A DNA stretch of 64,000 nt, taken from Escherichia coli (GTDB lineage Bacteria > Pseudomonadota > Gammaproteobacteria > Enterobacterales > Enterobacteriaceae). The position numbers and the translations under genes were made by a program. Every line of letters begins with the position of its first letter. The stretch's first letter is position 1. Shown here one piece after another: positions 14,417 to 59,541 of the stretch. The notes under the pieces were generated by a model. The model made no database searches and was not told the origin of the DNA. It was given only the letters and a program-made list of their open reading frames with translations. The stretch is taken from NCBI RefSeq assembly GCF_050920415.1, contig NZ_CP169309.1; one strand, given 5' to 3'.

Positions 14417-17400
14417 TTAGAACGTTTTCTTGAAGTTCAGCATCACGCCTTTATCGCTGATACCATCCTCTTTCCAGTGGTAAGCATCCAGATTCAGCGA
14501 ACTTTCTTTGCTGCTGTACTTCACGCCGACGCTTGCCAGACTGTTGATGCCGCCGCCCTTTTGCCCATCATCGACATTAAAGTGCTGGCTGCCTGCGCCT
14601 GCCAGGCTTGCCGTGCGCTGGCTCTTGCTGTAGCTGAGGTTCGGCCCACCTTCCAGCGTGGCGTTCACACTCCAGCCGTCTTTCCCTGCGTAGTCCAGCT
14701 TCAGCCCGACGATGCTGTCCACCGCCGTTTCGCTGCCGCTGTTCATGCTCAGGTTAAAGTCTCCGGCATTGCGCTCCTGATAGTCGCCTTCCAGCGTGTG
14801 ACGCAGTTTCACACCCGCATATGGCGTGATTTTCAGCCCTTCGCGCGGTTCAAAGGTTTTCGCCCCTTCGCTGCGGAACTCCAGGTACTGTTGTTTCACA
14901 TTCGTGTCTGCCGTCTTACTGATGTCGCCGTAAGCCACCGAACGGCTGCTGTCCAGTTGGTGGATATCGTAACGCAGCGCGTTATTCCAGCTCATACCGT
15001 TGTCAAAGGACATCTGATGCTTCAGGCCAAAGAACTGGCTGTAGCCGCCTGTAACACCATTATCACCCGCTTTCTGCGCACCGTCGCCGTCCAGACGGGC
15101 GATACCGTACTCCAGGCTCATGGTCTGGTTTTCGCTCAGGTCGAGGGTTTTACGCAGCGCCAGCATGTCGTACTCGGTATTGTTACCCAGCTCAGCACGC
15201 GGATCGCCTTTCGCCACCACGTTAAATGCCAGAGCGTTGCCCATCTTCGGTGCTGCGTCCGCCAACATGCTGAAGCGGTTACTCAACACGCGCGCCTCAC
15301 GGAATACCGTGGTAGCCTGGCTCCCGCTGACTTGTTTTAGCGCGTTGTTCAGCTCTGCAGTGGTGCCGACGTTCAGACTGGTATACAGCTCGTTGTTGGT
15401 GTAACCCGCATCCAGCGCTTTTGCCACGTCATTCACTGAGGCATCCGTCGCCACATCGGTGTAGGCGTTTTTGCTCATGGTCACGTCAACGTTGCCGCTG
15501 GCGTCGGTACTGCCTGTCGCCTGCCAGACAACAGATGTCGAAGTGATCGCTTGCGCATCGGTCAGGTTGCTGCCTTGCACCACATCATCAAAGCTGACGG
15601 TTTTGTCCGCCGTTCCCGCCGCAAAAGCGGTGTTGATCTCCACGCCTTTCATACTGGCGTTATTGACCATCAGCTTACCGGCGCTACCGTCGGCGTTCGT
15701 CCCCACCACGTAACCATTGAGGTTGTTCATGCCATCGTTACGGCTAACGGAAGAAGAATGGCTGCCGTCGTATGGCGTAATGGTGGGTTCTTCCGGCGCG
15801 GTAAAGTCGACATAGTGTACTTCCGTACCGTCTCCCCCTTCGCCACTGCCCTCTATCGGCGTGCCAGATTGTTTAATCAATCCGGAACCATTCACGTTGT
15901 CGTCAATATAAACAGTGCCGTTGTTAACAATATGACCATTGCTCCCGAGCTTGCTGAAGGCGAAGGAGTTATTGGCGTAGATATTAATCGTACCGTTGTT
16001 TTCAACCACACCATCCGCTTTGGCGTCCGATGCTAATTGCATCCCAATCATGCCTGTTTGTGTCGTGCCTTCGCTGCCGACATTGATGGTGCCATTGTTA
16101 ACCATTTTTGCGCTGCCGTGCGCATTCATGGCGATGGTATTATTTTTATCAATATTGATAGTGCCATCGTTAATTGCCCGGCTACCGGCGTTATTATTTG
16201 ACGTCGTAACCTGGCCGTTAATCACACCTGTCGTACCGTTATACAATGTATGCCCATTACCGCCGGTAGCGATATCAGCATCCCCATTCACTGTACCCCA
16301 GTTGTTGAAATGCCCAGCCCAAAGTCCGTTATCAAGAAGATCGACAACACCACCGTCCAGGTTATTGAAGGTCGCGTTTTTATCAACCGAACCACTATGA
16401 ACCGTTCCTGCGTTATTGAATGTGGCTGCGGCAGAAAAATTCACTTTATTGACCGTTCCACCCGCTTCGTTATTCATCACGGCAGAAGCAGAGGCTCCCT
16501 TCCATGCTGTTACCGTCCCGGCGTTATAAAACGTACTGGCCCATTGTTCAACAGTGTTGATAGTGCCGGAGTTGTTGATAACAGAACCCGCAACGGTTGT
16601 ACCTACTTGCCCGGTCACTACACCTTCGTTAGTAAACACGCCGCCATCCACAGAAACGGTTTTTGTCGTGCCCTGGTTGGTGTATTCCCCACCCGTTGCA
16701 ATATCAACCTCGTTTATACTGCCCGTGGTTTCATTGACCAGATGACCAAAGTCAGCCACGGTGACAGCCCCTCCGGTTACGGTACCCGCGTTGGTTACCA
16801 GGGTTTCAGCGGTCGCTATCATATCAGTAGAACCACCGGATGAAGACAGGTTAAGCGTCTCCCCCTCGGCCGTAATGATATCGCCGTTTCTCCAGCTTAA
16901 TGAAACGAACCCATCAGTCGGGTTATAGGCGTTACTGTCCTGGCATATACCAAAAGTACAGATGGTTCCGTAATTAACGATAGTCCCGCTGCCATCGTTA
17001 TAGAATGCCTGCCCGTTTTCAGCATTGATATTGATGATGCCCGTCTGGTCATTAACTGCGGTACCGCCACTATAAACTGCCATACCAACGAGTTTATTCG
17101 CCCCCAGGCTGCCATCAAAGTTCTCATTCTTCTCGAGGTTGATGGTACCCTGATTAACCACCGTATTATCGGTACCGTATGCTGCCATCCCAGCACCTGC
17201 ATTATAGATAGTGATAGTACCTGACTGCTGGTTAAGCGCGGTAGCATTTTGCCTTGCGCCACCATAACTGTCCGTTCCTACCGCCATGCCGACACCATAA
17301 TTTTTTGCATTGCTGCTGCCGATATCGTTGCGTAAGGTGGTGGTATCGTTTTCATCTACCCAGATCGTATCCAGGGTAATCTGGCCTGCATTTGTTACAG

Positions 17401-19954
17401 TCGAATGATTAATCGCCAGCATACCGACATTACCCCGGCCATACATATCAATAACGCCATTCGCACCATTTAGCGCTGAACCATTATCCTGAGCAGTCAT
17501 GCCCGTCATACTAACAACGCCACTATTAAAAACCGTGGGATCGCTCAATGACAAAGCATTGAACATATTCAAAACGCTATACTGTTCCATCACTTTAGCC
17601 GTAATGGTACCGTTATTCACCGCCGTCCCACCTTCGGAGCTAAAGAAGGCTTTATTACCGGATTCCGGCGATACATCAATTGCGGATGAGTAATCATATT
17701 GCTCAAGTAAAACATTACCGTTATTCGTTGCAACGGAACCCGTACCCGATATATTGGTAAACCCCATATTCCAGAGCTCAACAAACCCGTTATTGATAAC
17801 TTGTGACCCTGAACTGACGCTAAGTATTTCTGATGGGTTATTGCCATAATGCGCGTAAACGTCAATATCCTTCATACTGAAGGTCGCATCCTCCGTGATT
17901 TCAAGAAAAGCATTATTGCTTACCTGAATAATATTTGCATAGCCCAGCGGAAATTGACCGCTGACTGAGGAGTCTCCTCCCAGATAAACCGACGAATGAC
18001 CATCAACCTTAATGAGCGGAATATCACCATAGCCCGTACGACTTGCGGCTGGGACTGAACCATCCGTCATAGCCGATGCTTCACCGAAAAGTTGAATACC
18101 ACCCCGTAAGGTAACGCTATTTTCATCCCCTGAAATCACCAACCCACTGATGTTTTCCTGGCTACCATTGACAGTACTATAGGTGTGATGCGCAAGTTCG
18201 CTATCAACCTTCAATGTTAACTGACCATCCAGCGTCAGGTCATTATTGTTACCCGAAACACGAATACCTACGGAAGAATCGAAAAAGTGTTCTGCTGCAT
18301 TATCAGTCGTCTGATCTTTATCCACCATAATATTACCGGTAATTTCAACTTCATTGCCATCACCGGCCACATTTACCCCTGTAGCAACACTGCCAGTCAC
18401 ATTAAGCTCATTCGTTGCCAGCGTCATGGTGTTATTATTTCCAGACACATCCAGACCGGTTGAATAATCCCCAACATCCATACGGCCAGCCAGAGAAATT
18501 TCGCCCCCATCTCCAACAACGCGAATCCCGGTACTGGCATTTCTGGCAGTGATATCCCCTACATTGATAAAGGTAGAATAATTACCCTCAATCAGAATCC
18601 CTGTCGCATTGGTCTCTGAACTGCCATTACTGACGGATATATCCCCCCTGTTAATGAACGTCGACGCATCACCACTGAGAGAAACACCCAGCGATTTTTC
18701 ATCCACCACCGTTATATTGCCTTTGTTGCTGACGACTGCGCCATTGCCCTCAACATCAATACCCCGTGCAGCATTGCTAACGTATAAATCCCCTTCCTGT
18801 TTAACCGTCGCATTATTACCAACGATTTTGCTACCCGATGAATTTTGCCCATCAACCGTCATATGGCCTTTATTATCGGTCCTGACATCATTACCGATAA
18901 TAAGGGCCCCTGTTCCACCATTATTGACGGTGGAGTCGCCAGTGTTATTTAAGATTGTACGATCGCCATTAACGATAACCGCCGTCCCAGCATCGACCAC
19001 CGTCTGACCGTTATTATTAATGGTTATATTATCGCCGGTCAGGATACCGACCACCGAATCTTCACCGACAGCCTCTGTTTTACCCTCGTTTGTCAGCGTA
19101 ATGTTGTCACCATTAATCATCATCACTGTACCGCCATTCAGGGCCGTGTTGCCGCCCTGGTCAGTGATAATTGCATCATTAACGGTAATTATTCTGCCCG
19201 TTGTTCCATCAGACACGACGCTGGCTAACTGTGTGACGTGGAGTTTACCTTCGTCATCATAGCGCCATTCCGTATCACCAGTGGTACTCACTCCACTAAA
19301 GATGGCGGTATGAGTCTCTTCATGGTTTTCCCACTCAGTCACAATGGTTTTTCGGCCATCTTTTGCCGTCAGCGTGTAGCTACCATCTTCATTTTGGGTA
19401 TAAGTGAACGTCGCCCCGCGAATCTTCAAGGTTTGCGCGTCCTTGTCCCATGTCACATTGTTATCAAAGACAACGGGTTCTGTTCTCGGGGGGTCAACAT
19501 CATCATCGCTATTGTCGGGTGGAGTAACATCACCGCCTTTATCTGGGGGGGTAACATCATCGGCGTTATCTGGCTTTACAGGTATATCTGAATCTTCATC
19601 ACTGGGAAGGGGTGGCGGTAGAGGGCCATTATCATCTGGCGGTATGGGCTGGGAAAAAGAAGAGTGAGCAGAATGATCATTGTCATGAGACAATTCAATC
19701 ACTGCGAGTGTTGTCAGTACCGCCGTGGCACCTAATGCCAGTAACGAGCTGAAACCATTATTTGTAACAACAGCACATTTTTCTGGCACTGTTTTCAACT
19801 TCGTTGACGGTCGGGCGTGCCCTTCTGACTGACATGTCATTTGAGAGCTTCTGCGCATACTGTCTGCACTCTCGCCTTCTGTTATTTCCGCCCCCCAGCT
19901 TTGGCCACTTAACGCTATAGCGATACACGCTGATAATAACGTTTTCTTTTGCAT
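14417..19954 (-). CDS. ydbA: autotransporter adhesin YdbA, apparently intact (1845 aa)
   Basis: Signal peptide (MQKKTLLSACIAIALSGQSWG), long repetitive G/T/N-rich passenger, C-terminal beta-barrel translocator ending in ...FKKTF; uninterrupted ORF, whereas K-12 ydbA is split by IS2/IS30. Confidence 0.85.
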   Translation of the reverse strand: MQKKTLLSACIAIALSGQSWGAEITEGESADSMRRSSQMTCQSEGHARPSTKLKTVPEKCAVVTNNGFSSLLALGATAVLTTLAVIELSHDNDHSAHSSFSQPIPPDDNGPLPPPLPSDEDSDIPVKPDNADDVTPPDKGGDVTPPDNSDDDVDPPRTEPVVFDNNVTWDKDAQTLKIRGATFTYTQNEDGSYTLTAKDGRKTIVTEWENHEETHTAIFSGVSTTGDTEWRYDDEGKLHVTQLASVVSDGTTGRIITVNDAIITDQGGNTALNGGTVMMINGDNITLTNEGKTEAVGEDSVVGILTGDNITINNNGQTVVDAGTAVIVNGDRTILNNTGDSTVNNGGTGALIIGNDVRTDNKGHMTVDGQNSSGSKIVGNNATVKQEGDLYVSNAARGIDVEGNGAVVSNKGNITVVDEKSLGVSLSGDASTFINRGDISVSNGSSETNATGILIEGNYSTFINVGDITARNASTGIRVVGDGGEISLAGRMDVGDYSTGLDVSGNNNTMTLATNELNVTGSVATGVNVAGDGNEVEITGNIMVDKDQTTDNAAEHFFDSSVGIRVSGNNNDLTLDGQLTLKVDSELAHHTYSTVNGSQENISGLVISGDENSVTLRGGIQLFGEASAMTDGSVPAASRTGYGDIPLIKVDGHSSVYLGGDSSVSGQFPLGYANIIQVSNNAFLEITEDATFSMKDIDVYAHYGNNPSEILSVSSGSQVINNGFVELWNMGFTNISGTGSVATNNGNVLLEQYDYSSAIDVSPESGNKAFFSSEGGTAVNNGTITAKVMEQYSVLNMFNALSLSDPTVFNSGVVSMTGMTAQDNGSALNGANGVIDMYGRGNVGMLAINHSTVTNAGQITLDTIWVDENDTTTLRNDIGSSNAKNYGVGMAVGTDSYGGARQNATALNQQSGTITIYNAGAGMAAYGTDNTVVNQGTINLEKNENFDGSLGANKLVGMAVYSGGTAVNDQTGIININAENGQAFYNDGSGTIVNYGTICTFGICQDSNAYNPTDGFVSLSWRNGDIITAEGETLNLSSSGGSTDMIATAETLVTNAGTVTGGAVTVADFGHLVNETTGSINEVDIATGGEYTNQGTTKTVSVDGGVFTNEGVVTGQVGTTVAGSVINNSGTINTVEQWASTFYNAGTVTAWKGASASAVMNNEAGGTVNKVNFSAAATFNNAGTVHSGSVDKNATFNNLDGGVVDLLDNGLWAGHFNNWGTVNGDADIATGGNGHTLYNGTTGVINGQVTTSNNNAGSRAINDGTINIDKNNTIAMNAHGSAKMVNNGTINVGSEGTTQTGMIGMQLASDAKADGVVENNGTINIYANNSFAFSKLGSNGHIVNNGTVYIDDNVNGSGLIKQSGTPIEGSGEGGDGTEVHYVDFTAPEEPTITPYDGSHSSSVSRNDGMNNLNGYVVGTNADGSAGKLMVNNASMKGVEINTAFAAGTADKTVSFDDVVQGSNLTDAQAITSTSVVWQATGSTDASGNVDVTMSKNAYTDVATDASVNDVAKALDAGYTNNELYTSLNVGTTAELNNALKQVSGSQATTVFREARVLSNRFSMLADAAPKMGNALAFNVVAKGDPRAELGNNTEYDMLALRKTLDLSENQTMSLEYGIARLDGDGAQKAGDNGVTGGYSQFFGLKHQMSFDNGMSWNNALRYDIHQLDSSRSVAYGDISKTADTNVKQQYLEFRSEGAKTFEPREGLKITPYAGVKLRHTLEGDYQERNAGDFNLSMNSGSETAVDSIVGLKLDYAGKDGWSVNATLEGGPNLSYSKSQRTASLAGAGSQHFNVDDGQKGGGINSLASVGVKYSSKESSLNLDAYHWKEDGISDKGVMLNFKKTF

Positions 19955-26019: not shown

Positions 26020-29000
26020 ATGATTACTATTGACGGTAATGGCGCGGTTGCTTCGGTGGCGTATCGCACCAGTGAAGTTATCGCCATCTACCCTATTACC
26101 CCCAGTTCCACGATGGCAGAACAGGCTGATGCATGGGCCGGAAACGGCTTGAAAAACGTTTGGGGAGACACACCACGCGTGGTTGAAATGCAGTCGGAAG
26201 CGGGTGCTATCGCTACCGTGCATGGTGCTTTGCAAACTGGCGCCCTCTCAACATCGTTTACGTCATCGCAGGGTTTGCTGCTGATGATCCCAACGCTGTA
26301 CAAACTGGCAGGCGAACTGACGCCGTTTGTCCTGCATGTTGCGGCTCGTACCGTTGCCACACATGCACTCTCTATTTTTGGCGATCATTCCGACGTCATG
26401 GCAGTGCGCCAGACGGGTTGCGCGATGTTGTGTGCAGCAAACGTCCAGGAGGCGCAAGACTTTGCTCTCATTTCGCACATTGCGACGCTGAAAAGTCGCG
26501 TGCCATTTATTCATTTCTTTGATGGTTTCCGCACCTCCCACGAGATCAATAAAATTGTCCCGCTGGCCGATGACACTATTCTTGAACTGATGCCGCAGGC
26601 AGAAATTGATGCTAATCGCGCCCGTGCACTAAACCCGGAACATCCGGTGATCCGCGGTACGTCCGCCAATCCTGACACTTATTTCCAGTCTCGCGAAGCC
26701 ACCAACCCATGGTACAACGCAGTCTATGACCATGTTGAACAGGCAATGAATGATTTCGCTGCCGCGACAGGTCGCCATTATCAGCCGTTTGAGTATTACG
26801 GGCATCCACAAGCGGAACGGGTGATTATCCTGATGGGCTCTGCCATCGGCACCTGTGAAGAAGTGGTTGATGAATTGCTGACCCGAGGCGAAAAAGTGGG
26901 CGTGCTAAAAGTTCGCCTGTACCGCCCCTTCTCCGCCAAACACTTACTGCAAGCATTGCCGGACTCTGTTCGGACAGTGGCGGTGCTGGATCGCACCAAG
27001 GAGCCAGGTGCGCAAGCGGAACCCCTGTACCTGGATGTAATGACCACACTGGCTGAAGCCTTTAATAATGGCGAGCGCGAAACCCTGCCCCGTGTCATCG
27101 GCGGGCGCTATGGTCTTTCATCCAAAGAATTTGGCCCGGACTGTGTACTGGCGGTATTTGCCGAGCTCAACGCGGCTAAACCGAAAGCGCGCTTTACGGT
27201 TGGTATTTACGATGATGTGACCAATCTGTCACTTCCGTTGCCGGAAAACACCCTGCCAAACTCGGCGAAACTGGAAGCCTTGTTTTATGGTCTTGGTAGT
27301 GATGGCAGCGTTTCCGCGACCAAAAACAATATCAAAATTATCGGTAATTCCACGCCGTGGTACGCACAGGGCTATTTTGTTTACGACTCCAAAAAGGCAG
27401 GCGGCCTGACGGTTTCTCACCTTCGCGTGAGCGAGCAGCCGATTCGTTCCGCTTATCTCATTTCCCAGGCTGATTTTGTTGGCTGTCACCAGTTGCAGTT
27501 TATCGACAAATATCAGATGGCTGAACGTTTAAAACCTGGCGGCATTTTCCTGCTCAACACGCCGTACAGCGCAGATGAAGTATGGTCGCGCTTGCCGCAG
27601 GAAGTTCAGGCCGTGTTAAACCAGAAAAAAGCGCGCTTCTATGTGATTAACGCGGCGAAAATCGCCCGTGAATGTGGCCTGGCGGCCCGTATTAATACCG
27701 TCATGCAGATGGCTTTTTTCCATCTGACGCAAATTCTGCCTGGCGACAGCGCCCTGGCCGAATTGCAGGGCGCGATTGCCAAAAGCTACAGCAGCAAAGG
27801 CCAGGATCTGGTGGAACGCAACTGGCAGGCTCTGGCACTGGCGCGTGAATCGGTAGAAGAAGTTCCGCTGCAGCCGGTTAATCCGCACAGCGCCAATCGA
27901 CCGCCTGTGGTTTCCGATGCTGCTCCTGATTTCGTGAAAACCGTTACCGCTGCGATGCTCGCCGGACTTGGCGATGCTCTCCCCGTTTCGGCGCTGCCGC
28001 CAGACGGCACCTGGCCGATGGGTACCACCCGCTGGGAAAAACGCAATATTGCCGAAGAGATCCCCATCTGGAAAGAGGAACTCTGTACCCAATGTAACCA
28101 CTGCGTTGCCGCTTGCCCACACTCAGCTATTCGCGCCAAAGTAGTGCCGCCTGAAGCAATGGAAAATGCCCCTGCCAGCCTGCATTCGCTGGATGTGAAA
28201 TCGCGTGATATGCGCGGGCAGAAATATGTCTTGCAGGTGGCACCGGAAGATTGCACCGGTTGTAACCTGTGCGTCGAAGTTTGCCCGGCGAAAGACCGTC
28301 AGGATCCAGAGATTAAAGCCATCAATATGATGTCGCGCCTGGAACATGTGGAAGAAGAGAAAATCAATTACGACTTCTTCCTGAATTTACCAGAAATCGA
28401 TCGCAGCAAACTGGAACGTATTGATATTCGTACATCGCAACTGATTACACCGCTGTTTGAATATTCAGGTGCTTGCTCTGGTTGTGGCGAGACGCCGTAT
28501 ATTAAATTGCTGACTCAGCTCTATGGCGATCGGATGTTGATCGCTAACGCTACGGGTTGTTCTTCAATTTATGGCGGTAACCTGCCCTCTACACCGTATA
28601 CTACCGATGCCAACGGTCGTGGACCGGCATGGGCGAACTCGCTGTTTGAAGATAACGCCGAATTTGGCCTTGGTTTCCGCCTGACGGTCGATCAACACCG
28701 TGTCCGCGTGCTGCGTCTGCTGGATCAATTTGCCGATAAAATCCCGGCGGAATTACTAACTGCGTTGAAATCAGACGCCAAGCCAGAGGTTCGTCGTGAA
28801 CAGGTTGCAGCTTTACGCCAGCAACTCAACGATGTTGCCGAAGCACATGAACTGCTACGTGATGCAGATGCACTGGTGGAAAAATCAATCTGGCTGATTG
28901 GTGGCGATGGCTGGGCTTACGATATCGGCTTTGGCGGTCTGGATCATGTATTGAGTTTGACGGAAAACGTCAACATTCTGGTGCTGGATACGCAATGCTA

Positions 29001-29544: not shown

Positions 29545-29572
29545 ATGCTCTGGATAAGGATTATCCAATTCT

Positions 29573-29682
29573 AAAAAAAAGCCCGAACGACTGTTCGGGC
29601 TTGTCTTCTTATATGTTGGAAAATCAGTGGCAATGCAATGGCCCAACAGAAAATAAAATCTGTGACAATAAAGGCATATAAC
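29573..29682 (-). ncRNA. micC: MicC sRNA (represses ompC)
   Basis: Reverse complement reads GTTATATGCCTTTATTGTCACAGATTTTATTTTCTGTTGGGCC... ending in GCCCGAAC/GTTCGGGC hairpin plus U-run; matches recalled MicC sequence and its ydbK-ompN intergenic location. Confidence 0.85.
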
Positions 29683-29909
29683 CCGCGCAGAATAACGTAT
29701 AGCAAATTAAAAGTATAATTTTTATTTTGTATGTATTATCTTCGATACATTCACCAGACTTATTATCATTTCAGAGGAATTATTTGATTAAGGTTTTACT
29801 TAAGGCGTAACAAATGATATTTATCGGCTAACTGAACTTCTCCTTTAGGATGTTTTCATTCCCCGAAATGGGGATAAAAGGCAAATAAAATAACTAAAGG
29901 ATTTATTCA

Positions 29910-31102: not shown

Positions 31103-31618
<516 letters not shown>

Positions 31619-31625
31619 CACTAAC

Positions 31626-31650
31626 GCCCGCACATTGCTGCGGGCTTTTT
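31626..31650 (+). terminator. intrinsic terminator after uspF
   Basis: GCCCGC-loop-GCGGGC followed by TTTTT. Confidence 0.7.
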
Positions 31651-31793
31651 GATTCATTTCGCAAATGTGCTGACATTTTCCCCTCTAATCCGTACCATAC
31701 ACGCCACAGTTTTTATATCAGATTTCTTATGCTGGGCGTTCCGGCATGACGCATACTCTTCTGATGCCATATAACGAATTGAGTCGCTTTTAA

Positions 31794-32729
31794 ATGTCGC
31801 AAAATCAAGAAATTAGTAAGAAAGAACAATACAACCTGAACAAATTACAAAAACGTCTGCGTCGTAACGTGGGCGAAGCCATTGCTGACTTCAATATGAT
31901 TGAAGAAGGCGATCGCATCATGGTTTGCCTCTCCGGGGGTAAAGACAGCTATACCATGCTGGAGATTCTGCGCAATTTGCAGCAAAGCGCGCCAATCAAT
32001 TTTTCGCTGGTGGCTGTTAACCTCGATCAAAAGCAACCGGGCTTCCCGGAACACGTTCTGCCCGAGTATCTTGAAAAGCTGGGCATTGAGTACAAGATTG
32101 TGGAAGAGAACACTTACGGTATCGTGAAAGAGAAGATTCCGGAGGGCAAAACCACTTGCTCACTGTGTTCTCGTCTTCGTCGCGGAATTCTTTACCGTAC
32201 CGCAACGGAACTGGGAGCGACGAAGATCGCGCTGGGTCACCATCGTGACGATATCCTGCAAACGTTGTTCTTAAATATGTTCTACGGCGGCAAGATGAAA
32301 GGTATGCCTCCGAAACTGATGAGCGATGATGGCAAACATATTGTGATTCGTCCGCTGGCCTACTGCCGCGAGAAAGATATTCAGCGATTTGCCGATGCAA
32401 AAGCGTTCCCGATTATTCCGTGCAACCTGTGCGGTTCACAGCCTAACCTGCAACGTCAGGTGATTGCTGACATGTTGCGTGACTGGGATAAACGTTATCC
32501 GGGGCGTATCGAGACGATGTTCAGCGCGATGCAGAATGTGGTGCCGTCGCATCTGTGCGATACCAACCTGTTCGATTTCAAAGGCATTACCCACGGTTCT
32601 GAAGTGGTTAACGGGGGTGATCTGGCGTTTGATCGCGAAGAGATCCCTCTACAACCGGCGGGTTGGCAGCCTGAAGAAGATGAAAATCAGTTGGATGAGT
32701 TACGACTGAATGTGGTTGAAGTGAAATAA
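31794..32729 (+). CDS. ttcA: tRNA 2-thiocytidine(32) synthetase TtcA
   Basis: 311 aa ORF; PP-loop SGGKDS and CxxC motifs; full length. Confidence 0.92.
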
Positions 32730-32857: not shown

Positions 32858-34231
32858 TTATTTTAATAACCGCACCCGGCACGTTTTTCCTTTAATCTTC
32901 CCGCCCTGTAACTGTTTCCATGCTTTATGAGCAACAGCCTGACGCACCGCGACATAGACATGCGCCGGATGCACGGCGATTTTGCCAATATCTGCGCCAT
33001 CAAGCCCGATATCTCCTGTCAGCGCACCTAATACATCACCCGGGCGCATTTTGGCTTTTTTCCCGCCATCGATACACAACGTTGCCATTTCTGCTTCCAG
33101 CGGCACAATGGAACTATTAACTGGCGGCGTTTGCCAGTTAAGTTTTATCTGCAACATGTCAGAAATGATATTGGCCCGCTGTGCTTCTTCCGGGGCACAG
33201 AAACTGATCGCCAGACCGCTATTTCCTGCACGCGCTGTACGACCAATGCGATGTACATGAACTTCAGGGTCCCACGCCAGTTCAAAGTTCACTACCAGCT
33301 CAAGCGATTTAATATCAAGACCACGCGCAGCAACATCCGTCGCGACCAGCACACGAGCGCTACCGTTAGCAAAACGTACCAGGGTCTGATCGCGGTCACG
33401 TTGCTCCAGATCGCCATGTAACGACAATGCACTTTGCCCTATGTCATTCAGCGCGTCGCAGACAGCCTGACAATCTTTTTTGGTATTGCAAAACACCACG
33501 CAAGAGGATGGCTGATGCAAACTTAATAACCGTTGCAACAGCGGAATTTTGCCTTTGCTGGATGTCTCATAAAATTGTTGTTCAATGGGAGGCAGAGCAT
33601 CTGTTGAGTCAATTTCAATCGCCAATGGATCGCGTTGAACTCGTCCGCTGATTGCGGTGATGGCTTCCGGCCAGGTTGCCGAAAACAGAAGCGTCTGTCG
33701 AGATGCTGGCGCAAAACGGATAACATCATCAATGGCATCGCTAAATCCCATATCCAGCATGCGATCGGCTTCATCCATCACCAGCATATTCAACGCATCC
33801 AGTGATACCGTGCCTTTTTGCAGATGGTCCAGCAAACGCCCCGGGGTTGCCACGATAATATGCGGCGCATGTTGCAACGAATCACGCTGCATACCGAACG
33901 GTTGACCACCGCACAAAGTCAAAATTTTGGTATTTGGCAGAAAACGCGCCAGCCGACGCAATTCACCTGCCACCTGATCCGCCAGTTCACGCGTAGGGCA
34001 CAGCACTAAAGCCTGGGTCTGAAATAGCGACGCATCAATTTTCTGTAGCAGCCCGAGGCCAAAAGCCGCCGTTTTGCCGCTGCCGGTTTTCGCCTGCACG
34101 CGAACATCTTTTCCGGCAAGGATCGCCGGAAGCGCGGCGGCCTGCACCGGCGTCATAGTTAAATAACCCAACTCATTAAGGTTCGTGAGTTGGGCGGGAG
34201 GCAAAACATTCAGGGTAGAAAAAGCGGTCAC
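32858..34231 (-). CDS. dbpA: ATP-dependent RNA helicase DbpA (DEAD-box)
   Basis: 457 aa ORF; Walker A AKTGSGKT, DEAD motif (VMDEADRM), SAT, HRIGRTAR. Confidence 0.95.
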   Translation of the reverse strand: MTAFSTLNVLPPAQLTNLNELGYLTMTPVQAAALPAILAGKDVRVQAKTGSGKTAAFGLGLLQKIDASLFQTQALVLCPTRELADQVAGELRRLARFLPNTKILTLCGGQPFGMQRDSLQHAPHIIVATPGRLLDHLQKGTVSLDALNMLVMDEADRMLDMGFSDAIDDVIRFAPASRQTLLFSATWPEAITAISGRVQRDPLAIEIDSTDALPPIEQQFYETSSKGKIPLLQRLLSLHQPSSCVVFCNTKKDCQAVCDALNDIGQSALSLHGDLEQRDRDQTLVRFANGSARVLVATDVAARGLDIKSLELVVNFELAWDPEVHVHRIGRTARAGNSGLAISFCAPEEAQRANIISDMLQIKLNWQTPPVNSSIVPLEAEMATLCIDGGKKAKMRPGDVLGALTGDIGLDGADIGKIAVHPAHVYVAVRQAVAHKAWKQLQGGKIKGKTCRVRLLK

Positions 34232-34492: not shown

Positions 34493-34614
34493 AAAAAAAA
34501 GCCGACTCATCAAAGTCGGCGTCGTACGAATCAATTGTGCTATGCAGTAATTCAAAAAAGGAAGTAAGACAATATGGAGCGCAACGCCCATCGCTTGACG
34601 TTGCATTCACCTGC
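34493..34614 (-). ncRNA. fnrS: FnrS sRNA (FNR-activated)
   Basis: Reverse complement reads GCAGGTGAATGCAACGTCAAGCGATGGGCGTTGCGCTCCATATTGTCTTACTTCC... ending in GCCGACT/AGTCGGC hairpin plus U8; matches recalled FnrS and its dbpA-zntB location. Confidence 0.85.
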
Positions 34615-37991: not shown

Positions 37992-38084
37992 ACCGGCGCA
38001 GAGGAGACCATGCCGGATTTAAGACGCGGATGCACTGCTGTGTGTACTGTAGAGTCTGGCGGATGTCGACAGACTCTATTTTTT
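37992..38084 (+). ncRNA. mcaS: McaS (IsrA) sRNA
   Basis: ACCGGCGCAGAGGAGACCAUGCCGGAUUUAAGACGCGGAUGCACUGCUGUGUGUACUGUAGAGUCUGGCGGAUGUCGACAGACUCUA followed by U7; matches recalled McaS with GGA motifs and its abgR-smrA intergenic location. Confidence 0.75.
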
Positions 38085-38093
38085 TATGCAGTT

Positions 38094-41933: not shown

Positions 41934-41969
41934 CAACAACAACGCAAACACAACAAACGAGGAATGCCC

Positions 41970-43496
41970 ATGAGTATGTCATCCATACCGTCGTCCTCCC
42001 AATCCGGGAAGCTCTATGGCTGGGTCGAAAGAATTGGTAACAAGGTTCCCCATCCTTTTTTGCTCTTTATCTATTTGATTATCGTACTCATGGTGACGAC
42101 GGCAATTTTGTCGGCCTTTGGCGTCAGTGCGAAAAACCCGACCGATGGTACGCCAGTGGTCGTGAAAAACCTGCTCAGTGTGGAAGGATTACACTGGTTT
42201 TTACCCAATGTGATTAAAAACTTTAGCGGTTTTGCCCCACTAGGCGCGATCCTGGCGCTGGTTTTAGGTGCCGGTCTGGCGGAGCGCGTCGGCTTACTGC
42301 CAGCGTTGATGGTTAAAATGGCATCGCATGTGAATGCTCGCTACGCCAGTTATATGGTGCTGTTTATTGCTTTTTTCAGCCACATTTCTTCCGATGCGGC
42401 GTTAGTGATCATGCCACCGATGGGGGCGCTGATTTTTCTGGCGGTGGGCAGGCATCCAGTTGCAGGTTTACTGGCCGCCATTGCAGGCGTCGGTTGCGGC
42501 TTTACAGCTAATTTACTGATTGTCACAACCGACGTGTTGCTGTCGGGGATCAGCACGGAGGCTGCGGCTGCGTTCAATCCGCAAATGCACGTCAGTGTAA
42601 TTGATAACTGGTATTTTATGGCCAGCTCCGTAGTCGTACTGACGGTTGTTGGCGGCCTGATAACCGACAAAATCATTGAGCCACGGTTAGGTCAATGGCA
42701 GGGAAACAGCGATGAGAAACTGCAGACATTGACCGAAAGTCAGCGTTTTGGTTTACGCATAGCAGGTGTCGTATCGCTACTTTTTATTGCTGCGATTGCG
42801 CTGATGGTGATCCCGGTAAACGGTATATTGCGCGATCCGATCAACCACACCGTGATGCCATCCCCCTTTATTAAAGGTATCGTGCCACTGATCATTCTCT
42901 TTTTCTTTGTGGTTTCGCTGGCTTATGGCATCGCTACCCGCACAATTCGACGTCAGGCGGATTTACCGCATTTAATGATTGAACCGATGAAAGAGATGGC
43001 GGGATTTATCGTGATGGTTTTTCCCCTCGCCCAGTTTGTCGCCATGTTTAACTGGAGCAACATGGGGAAATTCATCGCTGTGGGGTTGACCGATATACTC
43101 GAAAGTTCAGGGCTTAGCGGCATCCCGGCGTTTGTCGGTCTGGCGTTGCTTTCCTCTTTCTTATGCATGTTTATCGCCAGCGGTTCCGCAATCTGGTCGA
43201 TTCTGGCCCCCATTTTCGTACCGATGTTTATGCTACTTGGCTTTCACCCGGCATTTGCGCAAATCCTCTTTCGTATTGCCGACTCATCCGTATTGCCTTT
43301 AGCGCCGGTATCTCCTTTTGTTCCACTGTTTCTTGGATTCCTGCAACGCTACAAACCAGACGCGAAACTGGGTACTTACTATTCGTTAGTTTTGCCCTAT
43401 CCACTTATCTTTTTGGTGGTATGGCTGCTGATGTTGCTGGCGTGGTATCTTGTCGGTCTGCCGATAGGTCCGGGGATTTACCCTCGTTTGTCTTAA
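41970..43496 (+). CDS. abgT: p-aminobenzoyl-glutamate transporter AbgT
   Basis: 508 aa polytopic membrane ORF downstream of abgB. Confidence 0.9.
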
Positions 43497-47698: not shown

Positions 47699-49309
47699 TC
47701 AATGTTTCACAATATACATAGTCCGGCTATACGCCACATCTTCCGGGTTATTAATGGGATAACCTTTCAGCCACGGCTTGATTAATCGTCCATTGGTATA
47801 TTGATAAATTGGTGCAATCGGTGCTTGCTCCATGAGGATTTTTTCTGCCGCATTGTAATCGGCATTACGCGCTTTAACGGTATTTTCCGTCGATGCCTGG
47901 GCCAAAACTTTGTCGTAGGCCGGGTTGTTAAAGCGTGAAATGTTGCCTGAATGCGTTGACGTTAATAATGTCAGGAAGGTGGAGGGTTCATTATAATCCC
48001 CCACCCACGAGGCGCGGATAACATCAAAATTACCTGTATTACGACTATCGATATAGGTTTTCCATTCCTGATTTTGCAGTTTGACATCTACACCAAGGTT
48101 CTTTTTCCACATCGATGCCACAGCAATCGCAATTTTTTGATGGTTTTCTGAAGTATTATACAAAAGCGTCAGCTTCAGCGGTTTTTGCGGACCATAACCG
48201 GCTGCGCTCAACAAAGTTTTTGCCTGCGCATTCAGTTCTTCCTGACTCATTTGTTCAAACGGCGAAGGCTCCGGCGTGAATCCGGCAGTAACATCTGGCG
48301 TAAAATGCCACGCTGGTTTTTCGCCCGTCCCCAACACTTTTTCGGTCATCAGGCGGCGATCTATCGTCATACTTAATGCCAGACGAACGCGCTGATCTGC
48401 CGTCGGCCCTTTTTGCGTGTTAAACGCATAATAATAGGTTCCGAGCTGCGGCGGTGTATAAACCTGCCCCGGAATATCCTTCAACAGCTTCTGATACATA
48501 TTTTTGGGGAAGGATTCGGTGATATCAATATCCCCCGCGAGATAACGCTTAGTGGCTGCGGATTCCTGATTAATTGGCAGGAAGGTCACTTTTTGCAACA
48601 CCGTTTTGGCGTTATCCCAATAATGGGTATTTGGCACCACGACCAGTTTTTCATTGACTACACGCTCTTTAAGAACATAAGCGCCATTGCCGACCAGATT
48701 TCCGGGTTTCGTCCACTCTTTCCCGCTTTCTACGTTAGCTTTTTGCACCGGGAAGAAGGCAAAATTGGCTGTTAAATTCACAAACCACGGCAACGGTTTA
48801 TCAAGCTGGATTTTCAAAGTACGGGCATCAACCGCGGTGACGCCTAGCTGATCAGGCGTAGCTTTACCATCAATAATCGCCTGTGCGTTGTTGATTCCCG
48901 CCAGCGCGGCAAACCAGGCAAACGGCGACAACGTTTTTGGGTCAACCAGACGTTGCCAGCTGTAGACAAAATCCTGTGCCGTTACCGGTGTGCCATCCGC
49001 CCATTTTGCGTTATCGCGCAGGGTGAAAGTCCAGATACGGTTGTCATTACTTTTCCACTGAGTCGCAACGCCGGGGACAATCTCCCCTTTCTCGTTCTGA
49101 TTCACCAGTCCTTCAAAAAGATCGCGAATGACCTGAATCTCTGGCAGACCCACGGCTTTAGCGGGATCCAGCGACGCAGGCTCATCTTTAATATGGCGCA
49201 CCAGCTCCTGCTTCTCTGCCAGTACTGTGCCGCTCGGAACTTCTGCAGCATACGAAAGAGACATTATGCAAAGTGGCAAAAACGATATATAAATCATGAT
49301 TTTATTCAT
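47699..49309 (-). CDS. mppA: periplasmic murein tripeptide-binding protein MppA, with an AT-rich, apparently replaced 5' end
   Basis: OppA-family SBP sequence; start taken at MNKIMIYISFLPLCIMSLSYA/AEV signal peptide (ATG at 49309); the first ~20 codons and upstream DNA are AT-rich, unlike the rest of the gene. Confidence 0.85.
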   Translation of the reverse strand: MNKIMIYISFLPLCIMSLSYAAEVPSGTVLAEKQELVRHIKDEPASLDPAKAVGLPEIQVIRDLFEGLVNQNEKGEIVPGVATQWKSNDNRIWTFTLRDNAKWADGTPVTAQDFVYSWQRLVDPKTLSPFAWFAALAGINNAQAIIDGKATPDQLGVTAVDARTLKIQLDKPLPWFVNLTANFAFFPVQKANVESGKEWTKPGNLVGNGAYVLKERVVNEKLVVVPNTHYWDNAKTVLQKVTFLPINQESAATKRYLAGDIDITESFPKNMYQKLLKDIPGQVYTPPQLGTYYYAFNTQKGPTADQRVRLALSMTIDRRLMTEKVLGTGEKPAWHFTPDVTAGFTPEPSPFEQMSQEELNAQAKTLLSAAGYGPQKPLKLTLLYNTSENHQKIAIAVASMWKKNLGVDVKLQNQEWKTYIDSRNTGNFDVIRASWVGDYNEPSTFLTLLTSTHSGNISRFNNPAYDKVLAQASTENTVKARNADYNAAEKILMEQAPIAPIYQYTNGRLIKPWLKGYPINNPEDVAYSRTMYIVKH

Positions 49310-49352
49310 ATATTTTTTAACCTTAAAATAATATGGTACACACAATGGTACA

Positions 49353-49380
49353 CAAAAAGAAACGAGGCGTTAGCCTCGTT
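49353..49380 (-). terminator. intrinsic terminator downstream of the prophage tail-fibre gene
   Basis: AACGAGGC-gtta-GCCTCGTT hairpin followed on the minus strand by TCTTTTTGTG. Confidence 0.6.
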
Positions 49381-49409
49381 TCGCGGCGATGTTCTTCGCA
49401 CATCACCTC

Positions 49410-51782
49410 TTATTCTTCGCTTCCGGTCAACTGCTTAACAAGCGCAACCAGTTCGCTAACCTGATTTTCAAGATTGGTGATACGTTCATCCATGACAGTA
49501 ATGTTAGCACGTAAGCTGGCGTTTTCTTCTTCCAGTGCTGTAGCTTTCAACATTAAGGATTGTGTAACGTGCATTGTATCGAGCAATAAAGGCGTAGTAT
49601 CAAGCTCTTTCACCTCTATTTCTTTGTTGTTATTATCATAATGTGTTCTTGTTTTTACATATAACGGATCTATTAGTTCGGCTGATTGTGAAATAATGCC
49701 ACGCCGCACTCTTTCTTTTTCATCACCATTGAATACGAATGTTACGAAATCAAGGTTTTCTAAATTGCTCCACGCTTTATCTACGGTAGCGTGCTGCACA
49801 TTATGCTTAAATCTAATATCAGATATTGCATTTTTAGTAACCGTTGAGGTTTCTGTTACGGAATAATTATCCCATTTGGTAAAGTAAATGTTTGAATCAA
49901 ACGGGGCAATTTCAAGTCTTACTCCGTATTTGTTATCACTATCACCAACGCAGTTTAATGAAGTCCTAGCAAAACTAGTGGTATTGTGATGAATTAAACC
50001 GAGACTATACCAAGTCGCATACCCCGCTGAGGATGCTTGCCCTGCACTAAAATTGGAATTAAACGACCAGTTTTCACCTATATTAGTGTAAGGTACAACG
50101 AATGTTGCGCCGTGCGTTGGGATCTCACCCCAACTTAAAAGTTTTTGCGTTGTAGCCCTAAATGATGCTGATTCAAAAAGCCCGCTATCATTTACCGTAA
50201 TTCTCCCCTTGTTCCCTGATGTTTTATTTTCAACTTCAATAACTGCATAGTGGGATTGATCGATATACGCATCACCCCACATCGACACTTCGCATTCTGA
50301 GGCGTCACCGATCTTGTATACGGATTTTACAACACCTGTAGTTGATTTTGTTCCGGTTGATAGCCTTGTTTTGTCGGCGTTAATTACGCTCCAGGATGTA
50401 TTTGCAGCGGTAAAGCCACCAGATGCACGGATCACCCATACACCAACAAAGTTTCGTGTAAGAATTTCATCTGTTGATGCTCCATAAATCGGGCTACACC
50501 GTGACGCATCAAAAGTACATGTATTATAACGGCCTTCCAAAGCGGTTGTACCGCTAGGAATTGCATCACCTACACCGTCAGGAAATACACTGTTATCGGA
50601 GGAAAATGCACCATAAGATGTGCCAATGGCTTGCGCGTAACTCCCACCGGAATAAGTGGTAAAATAACCAGTAATATTTGGCGCGGCTGATTCAAATAGT
50701 TGTCCGTTTGCACTACTAACGCCACCATCACCTCGACCATAAAGCGCTCTGATCGATCCTTCTTGTATACCGTTTTTATCGGGAACGCGGAAAGTTGTTT
50801 CTCCGTCACCCGTGGAATATTTACCGCGTTGGAATTTATCAGCCAGCCATTCAGAATCATCTATAGCGCCCACCATTTGAGCGTAAGCCCACAATTCAGG
50901 CCAATCTGCACGGTTAAGTAATTGCCCGTCCGATGTAACCTCATAAGGCTGAATATAAGCGCGGCTATCGCGTAAGTGGAAATCCCCTACGCCGTAATTC
51001 ATAACACCGTTCATTGTTGGTCCGACTGTACCACTATTGATATAGTTCATTACCCAACGCATTGTTACAGCGTCGTAATCACTTACCGGATCGCCTGCTA
51101 ATGGCGTTGAACCTATTGGGCGAACGTTCAACCAGGCCGCCGCTCGGTCGGCAAGATCGGAAAGGTTATTTTGTATTCTTAGAAATGAATCCGGGTTTAT
51201 GTCGTTTTTGTACCCTTCCGCTATGTTTTTATATTCTTCGGCGTTAGCGGCGCTTTCTGCTGCGTTTACTGCCGCCCCTGTTGCGGTAACAGCCCCTTCT
51301 TCTGCTGTTTGTGCTGCTGCTTCTGCTGCTGCTTTAGATGATTCGGCGTCTGTTTTGTATTGCTGAGTTGTCGCTTTATCTGCGCTTACTTGCGCTGAGT
51401 CCGTGTGAACTTGGTTAACTAGTGCTATCAATCCATCAAGATCAAATTCCTGAAAAAATTCAACTGCGTTTGCAATTTCGGTTTCCTTGCCCTGATAGTA
51501 ACGCAGAGTTTCAGCAACATCTTGCGCTAAACCATCTACAGAAATCGAGTCTGAAAGCAGAATACTGAATTTTGTCCCGGCAGATATTGCAGGGTCGGCC
51601 GCAGGAGTTACTGATAATTCAGTTCCGCTCTTAATTTCGGTGATGGTAAATATCTGCACAGGATCGCTAACTGCAATCAGCGTGCACCCTTCCCGGATGA
51701 GCGAAAGCGGCGCGGTGAAGCTTGTCCCCAAGCCTGTAACAGTGTTACCACTAATAGCTATTGTTCCTGTTGTATAAATCAT
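49410..51782 (-). CDS. phage tail fibre protein with tail-collar domain and C-terminal peptidase-S74-like intramolecular chaperone
   Basis: 790 aa; Stf-like N-terminus; collar-domain motif (DWPELWAYAQ...GDGETTFRVPDKNG); C-terminal SDIRFKHNV motif followed by coiled coil, typical of autoproteolytic chaperone domains. Confidence 0.8.
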   Translation of the reverse strand: MIYTTGTIAISGNTVTGLGTSFTAPLSLIREGCTLIAVSDPVQIFTITEIKSGTELSVTPAADPAISAGTKFSILLSDSISVDGLAQDVAETLRYYQGKETEIANAVEFFQEFDLDGLIALVNQVHTDSAQVSADKATTQQYKTDAESSKAAAEAAAQTAEEGAVTATGAAVNAAESAANAEEYKNIAEGYKNDINPDSFLRIQNNLSDLADRAAAWLNVRPIGSTPLAGDPVSDYDAVTMRWVMNYINSGTVGPTMNGVMNYGVGDFHLRDSRAYIQPYEVTSDGQLLNRADWPELWAYAQMVGAIDDSEWLADKFQRGKYSTGDGETTFRVPDKNGIQEGSIRALYGRGDGGVSSANGQLFESAAPNITGYFTTYSGGSYAQAIGTSYGAFSSDNSVFPDGVGDAIPSGTTALEGRYNTCTFDASRCSPIYGASTDEILTRNFVGVWVIRASGGFTAANTSWSVINADKTRLSTGTKSTTGVVKSVYKIGDASECEVSMWGDAYIDQSHYAVIEVENKTSGNKGRITVNDSGLFESASFRATTQKLLSWGEIPTHGATFVVPYTNIGENWSFNSNFSAGQASSAGYATWYSLGLIHHNTTSFARTSLNCVGDSDNKYGVRLEIAPFDSNIYFTKWDNYSVTETSTVTKNAISDIRFKHNVQHATVDKAWSNLENLDFVTFVFNGDEKERVRRGIISQSAELIDPLYVKTRTHYDNNNKEIEVKELDTTPLLLDTMHVTQSLMLKATALEEENASLRANITVMDERITNLENQVSELVALVKQLTGSEE

Positions 51783-51941
51783 CTCAACAACTCCATAATG
51801 TTAACTTATGTGTCAATTCTACCATTTTGCGATCTGTGTTACATTTCTGTCTTATACAAAATGTATTTGTTGATTTACATCAATGTTGTGAAAATGCGGT
51901 TTGTGGATACTACAACCAACGAAACAACGGAGGGTAAGACA

Positions 51942-52181
51942 ATGAAAGGCTTAAAAAATATCGCTATCGCTGCAATGGTTGCTGGTCTGGTTGGTTGTGC
52001 TGATATGCCGAAACGTGAATGCACGGCAATTTATCAAACTGGCGGTAATGAGTATGCGGTTGCAGTCTTCGGTGTCGCGGATGTTGGTGGTCACAAAATG
52101 GCTAAGGCTGGGTATCCATTTAATTTTCAATGGGTGAGCGTTGACCACTTCAAGAAAACGGATTGCCCGGAATTGAATTAA
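51942..52181 (+). CDS. phage lipoprotein, possible Cor-like superinfection-exclusion protein
   Basis: 79 aa from ATG at 51942 with SD GGAGGG; lipobox LVGC; opposite-strand gene at the distal end of the tail module, where cor sits in N15/phi80-like phages; family assignment is inference. Confidence 0.5.
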   Translation: MKGLKNIAIAAMVAGLVGCADMPKRECTAIYQTGGNEYAVAVFGVADVGGHKMAKAGYPFNFQWVSVDHFKKTDCPELN

Positions 52182-52771
52182 TCATAGGCGTCGGTTTTAA
52201 TGGCGGTGATAGCGTTCCCGTGGTTAATATAGCCAGTTGGTGCATATACGCTACCCGCCTGGATGCCGTAAATTCTAGTTGTGCTTCCGTTGTAATAAGC
52301 CGCCGCATAAATGGATGCACTACCCTGTCCAACGAGCGCCCCTAACAATTGGGGGCAAATAGCATAAGAACCGGATAACGTTTGGTCTATATAAATTCCG
52401 CCGCTTGATCCTGCCGTCCCAACGGTTACAAGGTCTGTTAATATTCTTGATTCATTAGTTAGCACTAGTTCCCCGGAAGCGTTCCAAATAGCCATTCCCC
52501 ACTTCGGCAGCGATGGCGGGAAAATAGTGAAAATATACGCATACCCCGAACCAGCCCCGATTAGTAAAGTTGATGGGCTATTTCTATAAGCTAATACAGC
52601 GGCGGCGGTAGTGCTTTTTACAAATACCATCACGGGCTTCCCGGATGGCACGGCGACGGTTTGATTCGATGATGTTAATGTCACCCGTTCATATAAGCAA
52701 AGCGGCGTTGCTTCCGGTGTAACGAAAATATTCCCGTTACTTAATCTCAAATAAGCTCCGAAGGTTGCCAT
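52178..52771 (-). CDS. phage protein (197 aa) downstream of J, N-terminus MATFG
   Basis: ORF whose stop overlaps the next gene; shares the N-terminal MATFG with the adjacent 103 aa ORF; Gly/Ser/Thr-rich. Confidence 0.6.
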   Translation of the reverse strand: MATFGAYLRLSNGNIFVTPEATPLCLYERVTLTSSNQTVAVPSGKPVMVFVKSTTAAAVLAYRNSPSTLLIGAGSGYAYIFTIFPPSLPKWGMAIWNASGELVLTNESRILTDLVTVGTAGSSGGIYIDQTLSGSYAICPQLLGALVGQGSASIYAAAYYNGSTTRIYGIQAGSVYAPTGYINHGNAITAIKTDAYD

Positions 52772-53082
52772 TAAGCCACCTCCGCAAATATAACAATTTC
52801 ACACTGTGACGCGGGCCATATATTAGCGCCTACCGTATCCCCTGCCGAGGAAATGGAAACAGTACCACCCGAAATAGTGATCTTTCTGCGCGTCGTTGAC
52901 GTTGTGCCATAATCAAGCGTCATCCCATAAGATAATTTGCATCCGGTCGGCACTGTAAAGGTATATGTGCCGGATACCTGCCCGGATGATAAGGAAATAT
53001 AACCAACCACAACGGAAGGTTTAATTCCATAGTTATTAGCATTGCCGCTGGCGTCCCAGGTCGCTACGCCGAAAGTAGCCAT
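52771..53082 (-). CDS. phage protein (103 aa) downstream of J, N-terminus MATFG
   Basis: ORF immediately after J with SD (GGAGG); Gly/Ser/Thr-rich beta-type composition. Confidence 0.6.
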   Translation of the reverse strand: MATFGVATWDASGNANNYGIKPSVVVGYISLSSGQVSGTYTFTVPTGCKLSYGMTLDYGTTSTTRRKITISGGTVSISSAGDTVGANIWPASQCEIVIFAEVA

Positions 53083-53134
53083 AATTACACCTCCTTAATA
53101 AAAAACTGAGGCCGAACAAGTCGGCCCCTTAATT

Positions 53135-56100
53135 CTACCATGATCCGGTAATTCGCCCAATCTGGACGCGCAAAACCCCGTTACCGTCTTTTACCGAAAT
53201 AGTGGTATTAGTTAATTTCATCGCGCCCTCACCACTCACCGCGCCGTAGTTTTCGAATGTCCCGCCTTTATCCAGTTTCCATCCGGTACTGCCGGAAACA
53301 TAGTTATTTGACTGGATGTAAGAACCTATTTTCGCGTTGGTGATTGAGGCGTCTTTTATAAATGCTTCGCGAACATACATAGCGCCGTTTTCAACATAAA
53401 ATGGTGTCGTATATGTGCCGTTGGCGGCTGTCATTAATACGAAGCGGTCAACAAGAAAAATACATTGTGATTGCGTATTTGCGCCATCACCAGTTACCCC
53501 AAGCGATATTCCTGACGCGTATTTCATACCGTTGTTATCAGTAGCGATCTTGAGACTCCAAGTTGCCGACATATCACCATTAATATTGGTAATTGCTGTT
53601 TTGTTTTCCTCAATAAGCACTGATTGCCCATTAATTGATGCGGTTACTTCGCTAATTTGCTGCGCGGTTGCTTTTTCAAGCGTAACCATTGCTTGTTCAA
53701 GGTTTGTGACCTTCCCTTGAATATCATCACTTATTTTTGCTTCAAGCTCTGATAATGCTTTTGCTGTTGCCTCTTTTTCCGTTGCGACAACTTCATCTAT
53801 ACGCGTGATCTCTGCTTTTGATTGTTTCAACTGAGCGGAAAGTGTGCGTCTTGATGTTGTTTGAGCTACGGAATTATTAAGAAGCGCAATGGAAACGTTT
53901 TGCAAGCGGGCGCGAGTTTGTGTTAGTTCGCTATCCTGTTCCGAAAGCTCGACACCTATTTCGTCAATACGACTTTCATGAACCCCTAACCCCTCTTCGT
54001 TATTCTGGACGCGATTAATTAGATCTGATGTGGTATCCTTCAGATCGGTAACATCCCCTTTAAGTGTGCTCGTGTCACTAATCAACCCTTGAAATTGCTC
54101 GCTTTCCATGACTTCTTTCGTCACGAAATCTGTAATTTCGTCGAAGTCCTCCGTAGGCTTCCCGGATGCCTCAATAAAATCTGACACACCGAACGCGTTG
54201 CGGGTGCGAATGTACACATAATACATGTGGCCTGTGCTCATGCCGCCGAACGTCCATTGATAACCACGTCCGGTATACTGCGCTGACGTGGTTATGGTTG
54301 CCGGATCCGTAATCCTGTTTTCTCCGGCGTAATAAAATTCATATGCCGTATCAGTGGTGAGTGTTGTTTTGCTTATCGGGTAGACAGTAGCCTGAAATAC
54401 ACCAGGCACCCAATTTACACCGACAGGCGCGGATGGCGCTCCAATCACCAGATCGACGATGCTTTCTGCACCCTTCATGCCAGTGTCATTTCTGCCGCGA
54501 ACACCTAACGTGTATGAACCAGCATCAATGCCATAAAAATCATAACTGTATTTCGTGGTTTCATAGCTTTTAACCACCGCACCATCTGCATTGTATATGC
54601 GGATCTCGAATGTCATGCGATGAGTGGTAGTCTGTGTCTCCCACGTTGCGCGGCATTGAACTGTTTCCGATCCAATGTTTACTACCTTCAGATTTTCGAT
54701 GTTCGGCACACGGAAGTGATTAAGCGTGTCGCTGTTGATTTCGAAGATTGCGCCTTCATCGACTACGGCTTGTTTGTTAGGGTCGTGCTGCGCGGCTTCG
54801 ATAGTGTATACGCTGTTATTTTGTGTTTCTGCTACGCTGGTGATCCTACACAAAACTGGTTTTGCTGCGTTAGTTGATACAGCAAAAACAGTGCCATTTC
54901 GAATCCATGTTGGGGCCGCAGCAAGGGTGATATTGTTTCCGTTAACTCCGGTGATCTGGTGTTTTTTAAATTTGCCATCGCTATCAAGAAGGCTTATTGT
55001 GTCGCCAGCGGTCACATATTCAGAATCAACCTTATCTACAGTGATCACACGTCCATTGTTAGAGACAATACGACCGCCTAAGCGAGCGCCAGCACGGTTA
55101 TTGTCGAGTATCTCGATGATATCACCTGGCGTAAAGTGAATCGCGTCACGGGCCATTTTAAACGTGAATTTTGAAGGCTCGCGCTTCGCTGTTTCTATCA
55201 GCCATTTACCCGCCCGGTGCGCTTGCCCGCGTGATGTACACCCGAAAGCCTCCAGCGTGGTTTCGTTGTAGCCGTCACGGGCGATTAGTTCATCATCTGC
55301 GACATACTCTTTTGATTGTTCCCAGCCGTTTTCCGGATCAGTCCATGACACAATTACCGCGTTGTAGCATTCTGATCGCGCGATACTTGAACGGGTAAAT
55401 GCACCATCCACGACGTTTGCGTTAGTGATGGTTGCGATTGGGTCTTGTGGTGCATCAATCATTATAGTAAGGCGCTGACCATCCCATAACGCTATACCAC
55501 GGAACATCCCGGCGATGTTGTCCAGTAGGTCGCGGGCGCTCATTTGCTCTGTGATGTACGCGTTTAGCGTGACGCGCGGCTCTAAGCCACCATAGCCATC
55601 ATCAACCAACTGATCGCAGTATTGAGAGAGCGTATACAAAGCACCATCATCAACATCGATATAACCAGCCTGTCGAGCAAGGCCAAAACGCTCGTTTTTA
55701 ACCAAGTAGCGGAATATCCACGCCGGGTTATTTGTGTATGCCTTTTTAAGTCCGCCAAGCCATAAACCGGAATAATTTCGTTTTTCCGGGTCGTAGTTAT
55801 CCGGTACATCGACAATCAGCCCACGCAGATGATAAGTGCGTGTAGGTGTATCGGAGTACTGGTCATGGTCAATTACCGCGCCAGCTACAGCAGTGTGAGG
55901 ATAAGACAAGTTATCGTCGATGATTTCGCTATAACTGTTCCAGCGGGTATCGTTCTGTAATAGGTCGCTTACACTATCAGCCGTCACGCGGCGCACGCGA
56001 ATATCAAATGGCTTTTCATCCGGCGCATCAATGATATGAGACTCCAGATATTCACCGCTAATCTTACCCGGACCGATTTGTACGGCCTTAACCGCCGACC

Positions 56101-56554: not shown

Positions 56555-56566
56555 AATAACCCCCTA

Positions 56567-57771: not shown

Positions 57772-57773
57772 AA

Positions 57774-58511: not shown

Positions 58512-58616
58512 ACCGTGAATGCCAAAATGGATTGATAGCGTGATTTACAATATGTATATTTTACTCAAACGAACGGTAGTAAACAAAATGGCACAGTTTG
58601 GAACAGGATAGGACAC

Positions 58617-58775: not shown

Positions 58776-58798
58776 ACAATAAACACAAAGGTAACACT

Positions 58799-59152: not shown

Positions 59153-59161
59153 GGCGGCAAT

Positions 59162-59537: not shown

Positions 59538-59541
59538 TAAT

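Follow-up and report, generated by a model that had tools for sequence, protein, structure and literature searches.

The window, that is, the whole 64,000-nucleotide stretch of Escherichia coli DNA analysed here, harbors uspF, which encodes universal stress protein F, followed by a terminator-like hairpin and by an intact ttcA, which encodes the tRNA 2-thiocytidine-32 synthetase (Table 1). The assignment of uspF comes from the ORF list and the sequence, and its product matches the NCBIfam equivalog model for UspF with 303 bits (cut-off, 166). The hairpin found by the terminator scan has a stem of seven pairs, six of them GC, a loop of six nucleotides and a T run. The ttcA product, in turn, matches the NCBIfam equivalog NF007972 with 513 bits for a cut-off of 272, and its alignment with the K-12 protein displays the PP-loop motif SGGKDS together with C122, C125, C210 and C213, of which Cys122, Cys125 and Cys213 are the known cluster ligands. 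The synteny is ompN–uspF on one side and ttcA–dbpA on the other, and nothing is inserted between the two pairs, which are parted by the 175-bp spacer only. The original prediction had described this layout of uspF, terminator, 175 bp and a full-length ttcA of 311 residues, and it is borne out by the ORFs, the hairpin scan, the NCBIfam models and the annotation of a near-identical genome, MFDS1022581 (NZ_CP169399.1), in which RefSeq places uspF and ttcA at the same positions as in the window.

The spacer is presumably the native upstream region of ttcA. In the alignment it equals the K-12 spacer between uspF and the pseudogene ttcC, save for one T in the T run, and in K-12 this equivalent stretch has stayed next to ttcC, across the Rac prophage from ttcA. 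A promoter scan of the spacer returned a single −35/−10-like site (31670–31698), with a regional count below the shuffle expectation, and an Rfam scan of the whole window placed no family between uspF and ttcA. Two small ORFs of the spacer (41 and 51 aa, with TTG/GTG starts) were dropped as mechanical ORFs that are unsupported. Neither an ORF of phage character nor Rac DNA is found between uspF and ttcA, as judged by the ORF list and by blastn, respectively.

Table 1. Features of the uspF–ttcA locus, small RNAs and the prophage at mppA (positions refer to the 64-kb window).
Feature	Position	Strand	Remarks
uspF (universal stress protein F)	31184–31618	+	144 aa
Native uspF–ttcA spacer (presumed)	31619–31793	+	175 bp
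Terminator-like hairpin 3' of uspF	31626–31650	+	GCCCGCACATTGCTGCGGGC, then TTTTT
ttcA (tRNA 2-thiocytidine-32 synthetase), intact	31794–32729	+	311 aa
Segment equivalent to K-12 ttcC (native ttcA 5' end, displaced by Rac in K-12)	31794–31843	+	Base-for-base identity
Extended imperfect att homology, native ttcA 5' end versus Rac-borne surrogate 5' end	31801–31843	+	43 bp, 93% identity
Predicted attB core	31818–31843	+	26 bp, exact identity, AAGAAAGAACAATACAACCTGAACAA; single copy in window
dbpA, conserved right-hand neighbor of ttcA	32858–34231	−	Convergent; synteny marker
MicC	29565–29685	−	Rfam gathering-level, K-12-like position
FnrS	34497–34614	−	Rfam gathering-level, K-12-like position
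McaS	37992–38087	+	Rfam gathering-level, K-12-like position
mppA, phage-supplied start and putative signal-peptide N-terminus	47699–49309	−	536 aa, open
Siphovirus-type prophage, tail end, integrated in mppA	49262–64000	−	Runs off the window
Prophage tail fiber	49410–51782		PHROGs
Prophage "membrane associated protein" moron	52178–52771		
Prophage central tail fiber J	53135–56554		PHROGs
Prophage tape measure	61046–63385		PHROGs

In K-12 the same two genes lie far apart. The MG1655 annotation gives the cryptic prophage Rac as NC_000913.3 1411899–1434958, 23,060 bp, which agrees with the earlier statement that a Rac of about 23 kb parts uspF from ttcA and leaves ttcC behind. Rac sits there between ttcA, whose first 50 bp are inside the annotated prophage feature, and ttcC, a 51-bp pseudogene located 176 bp from uspF. 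From the uspF side, the window equals the K-12 succession of uspF, spacer and ttcC, save for the one T, up to 31843, where K-12 enters Rac; from the other side, it is collinear with the K-12 ttcA flank from 31801 on, the intervening 23 kb being missing. The flanks of K-12 Rac (ttcA/dbpA, and ttcC/uspF/ompN) are thus collinear with the window, which lacks the element itself with its intR, xisR, ralR, recT, recE, kilR and other genes. A blastn search of the 23,060-bp Rac against the whole 64-kb window returned 43 bp of att homology as the sole similarity. An alignment to the K-12 Rac junctions had been set beforehand as the check, and beyond these 43 bp it revealed no Rac-derived sequence at the junction. 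Judging from these alignments, no Rac integration is present at ttcA in the window.

The 43 bp correspond to the overlap of the two K-12 flank alignments (31801–31843), and they end in a 26-bp core, AAGAAAGAACAATACAACCTGAACAA, which in an exact-match search occurs once in the window and twice in the K-12 locus. The two K-12 copies, at 3900–3925 and 26960–26985 of the K-12 locus extract, coincide exactly with the annotated boundaries of Rac, so that the boundary repeats of the prophage are identical to the core of the window. Upstream of the core, the resemblance between the K-12 copies continues, with mismatches, to around the start codon, which explains both the 43-bp blastn match and the 43-bp overlap of the flank alignments; the core and all that follows it in the junction alignment match the K-12 ttcA side without a difference. 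The core occupies codons 9–17 of ttcA, and the attachment site is therefore this 26-bp core inside the gene, rather than the intergenic spacer. On this evidence, the uspF–ttcA junction region is very probably an unoccupied attB for lambdoid phages of the Rac type, and nothing in the window sequence contradicts this reading. The original prediction had placed an unoccupied site within 31619–31800; its emptiness stands, whereas its location has to be shifted, as the core begins 18 bp past that interval.

Related phages suggest a narrower site of exchange. Rac-SA53 (KU052037.1) and vB_EcoS-683R6 (ON470595.1) are records of the Rac type with intR, ydaQ and the surrogate end of ttcA, and their integrase module, which targets the ttcA site, is 96–99% identical to K-12 intR–xisR. 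The Rac-SA53 record places a 26-bp attP at the corresponding position (KU052037.1 721–746), and this attP differs from the core of K-12 and the window at 3 of the 26 positions (GAGATAT versus GAACAAT). A stretch of 15 bp, ATACAACCTGAACAA (31829–31843), is common to the window, to both K-12 junctions and to Rac-SA53, and strand exchange probably takes place within it. The proposed mechanism is taken from K-12 and from published work. A tyrosine integrase of the Rac type (IntR) would recombine the 26-bp attB core with an identical attP core of the phage, which would bring, next to intR, a substitute for the start and first codons of ttcA. After integration, ttcA would still be full length, because the phage supplies this surrogate start, with four N-terminal residues altered, and the native 5' end of the gene would be stranded as ttcC next to uspF.

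The TtcA protein encoded in the window fits this model. It is identical to K-12 TtcA at 305 of 311 residues, and four of the six differences fall at residues 2, 3, 6 and 8 (MSQNQEIS in the window versus MQENQQIT in K-12); the other two, I98 for V and G290 for C, are ordinary polymorphisms. It has been described that rac excision, for which XisR (YdaQ) is the excisionase, alters four N-terminal residues of TtcA because attL and attR are imperfect repeats, and that the resulting TtcA', regarded by the authors as the ancestral form, is identical to the protein found in 14 natural strains whose ttcA carries no rac (Liu et al. 2015, Sci Rep, PMC4632033). CP-933R (EDL933) and Sp10 (Sakai), the rac-like prophages of O157:H7, are reported to use the same ttcA site, and the same TtcA change is predicted on their excision (PMC4632033). 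The attB of the rac-cured strain BW25113 delta-rac and of natural rac-free E. coli and Shigella shares with the window the locus, the type of ttcA 5' end and the same four residues differing from K-12, and the window has a single att core; no difference of substance separates the window from these strains, apart from the two TtcA polymorphisms relative to K-12. Given its native, ttcC-type 5' end and the N-terminal match to the published protein, the window carries the ancestral TtcA' allele together with the native upstream region.

The frequency of this arrangement was surveyed in 5426 complete E. coli genomes with a 1.7-kb query spanning the uspF–ttcA junction. The query was matched in 5410 of them, and in 2487 of these (~46%) uspF and ttcA are contiguous; in the remaining genomes the match splits at query positions 702–707, equivalent to 31801–31806 of the window, where the att homology starts. 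In one genome, CAVP776 (H40), the match was confined to the uspF side. In all 30 of the closest backbones, nifJ–ompN–uspF–ttcA is contiguous. The empty ttcA site is hence an ordinary state of the species, already described and very common.

It could be argued that the site once held a Rac-like prophage that was precisely excised by IntR and XisR, an event that would restore attB and the TtcA' N-terminus and would make this a cured, not a naive, lineage. In K-12, rac does excise, and its excision gives exactly the TtcA' of strains without rac (Liu et al. 2015, PMC4632033); in addition, the site is interrupted in roughly half of the complete E. coli genomes, which makes both gain and loss plausible. 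Site-specific excision is, however, scarless, and the sequence yields no positive sign of past occupancy, and the empty site of the 30 closest backbones is explained at least equally well by a lineage that has long lacked the prophage. This history is accordingly held to be rather unlikely. If a recent excision were true, TtcA' and the native upstream region would be expected to bring about the phenotypes of rac-cured K-12, for which altered carbenicillin fitness, increased motility and more early biofilm have been reported; even so, it would repeat in a natural isolate what has been published for K-12. Two further explanations have next to no weight. The contiguous junction could be an assembly artefact in which a prophage was collapsed out through its 26–43-bp direct repeat, since direct repeats flanking a prophage may, in principle, confuse assembly, but this is hardly credible: a repeat of this size falls far short of what would collapse 23 kb or more in normal assemblies, the 5' end of the junction is purely native (ttcC-type) and not hybrid, and the same structure is present in 2487 complete genomes, the 99.97%-identical MFDS1022581 among them. 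Similarly, cryptic prophages often decay in situ, but a degraded Rac remnant left at the junction by partial deletion has a negligible probability, being refuted by the 43-bp att homology as the only blastn match of the 23-kb Rac, by the spacer that equals that of K-12 save for one T, and by the native type of the ttcA 5' end.

The absence of Rac had originally been extended from this locus to the whole strain, together with recE/recT, ralR and kilR. For the ttcA locus and the 64-kb window this is correct; for the strain it goes too far. CFT073 has an empty ttcA site and yet bears a recE-carrying prophage at potB (PMC4632033), and 4521 of the 5426 genomes contain partial recE-like sequences ("exonuclease" matches with 8–40% coverage and 80–90% identity), mostly in other prophages. 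The absence of Rac genes is shown for the locus and the window only. The ralR–recT–recE block (at least 80% of a 3.65 kb K-12 query) was found in 1648 genomes, as against about 2900 complete genomes in which uspF–ttcA is interrupted, so that the recombination module of many occupants of the ttcA site differs from the K-12 type. Occupants of this site are thus of mosaic make-up, and pieces of "Rac genes" also occur independently of it. A chimeric query (5.8 kb of the window plus the 3.65 kb of K-12 ralR–recT–recE) had four matching places, instead of one, in MFDS1022581, the nearest complete genome, and since short recE-like matches occur in most genomes, these extra places are not readable as Rac.

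A different prophage is present elsewhere in the window. As had been stated, the only prophage of the window sits at mppA: identity to prophage-free genomes ends at 49261, which sets the chromosome/prophage junction at 49261/49262, and the ORFs between 49410 and 63385 match PHROGs for tail fiber, central tail fiber J, tail assembly protein, minor tail proteins and tape measure. Positions 1–49261 are ordinary chromosome; they are 99.97% identical to MFDS1022581, with two mismatches and two gaps, and contain no further phage genes, as judged by the annotation of that genome. MFDS1022581, which is 100% identical to the window over 1.7 kb, is without the mppA prophage. At least 80% of the segment 46500–56500 was found in none of the complete E. 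coli genomes searched. The mppA junction falls within the signal-peptide codons on the minus strand, and the phage end gives a new ATG (49309) and the N-terminus MNKIMIYISFLPLCIM, fused to the conserved SLSYAAEV... and replacing the native MKHSVSVTCCALLVSSI. The mppA reading frame stays open because the prophage supplies this replacement start and N-terminus, the latter including a putative signal peptide. The mppA prophage thus "brings its own 5' end" to the gene it enters, as Rac does at ttcA. Strain LSU61, an atypical O157:H7, likewise combines an empty ttcA site with a prophage at mppA. Its related prophage occupies the same mppA site and extends over ~53 kb out to a tyrosine integrase, has Erf and SSB instead of RecET, and is 82–96% identical to that of the window in the patches that align.

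Other features of the chromosomal part of the window were also recorded. Both abgT and mppA are annotated as frameshifted in MFDS1022581, and abgT is open in the window (41964–43496). An intact autotransporter ORF of 1845 aa (14417–19954, minus strand) lies at the position of ydbA, which in K-12 is presumably an IS-interrupted pseudogene. Between ydcF and hrpA there is a single-gene islet (1–1400) with an ORF on the minus strand (396–1253) encoding a protein with DUF7021 and DUF2262; at least 80% of this 1.5 kb is present in only 4 of the 5426 complete E. coli genomes, and neither PADLOC nor NCBIfam matched the protein.

Whether Rac is present has consequences in K-12 for recET-dependent recombination, for the KilR and RalR toxins and for biofilm phenotypes. 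The modest value of the present analysis lies in a correct strain-typing note and in the precise location of the att core (31818–31843). With the ttcA integration hotspot free, the strain keeps the ancestral TtcA', and lysogeny by a phage of the Rac type at this site may, in principle, be possible.
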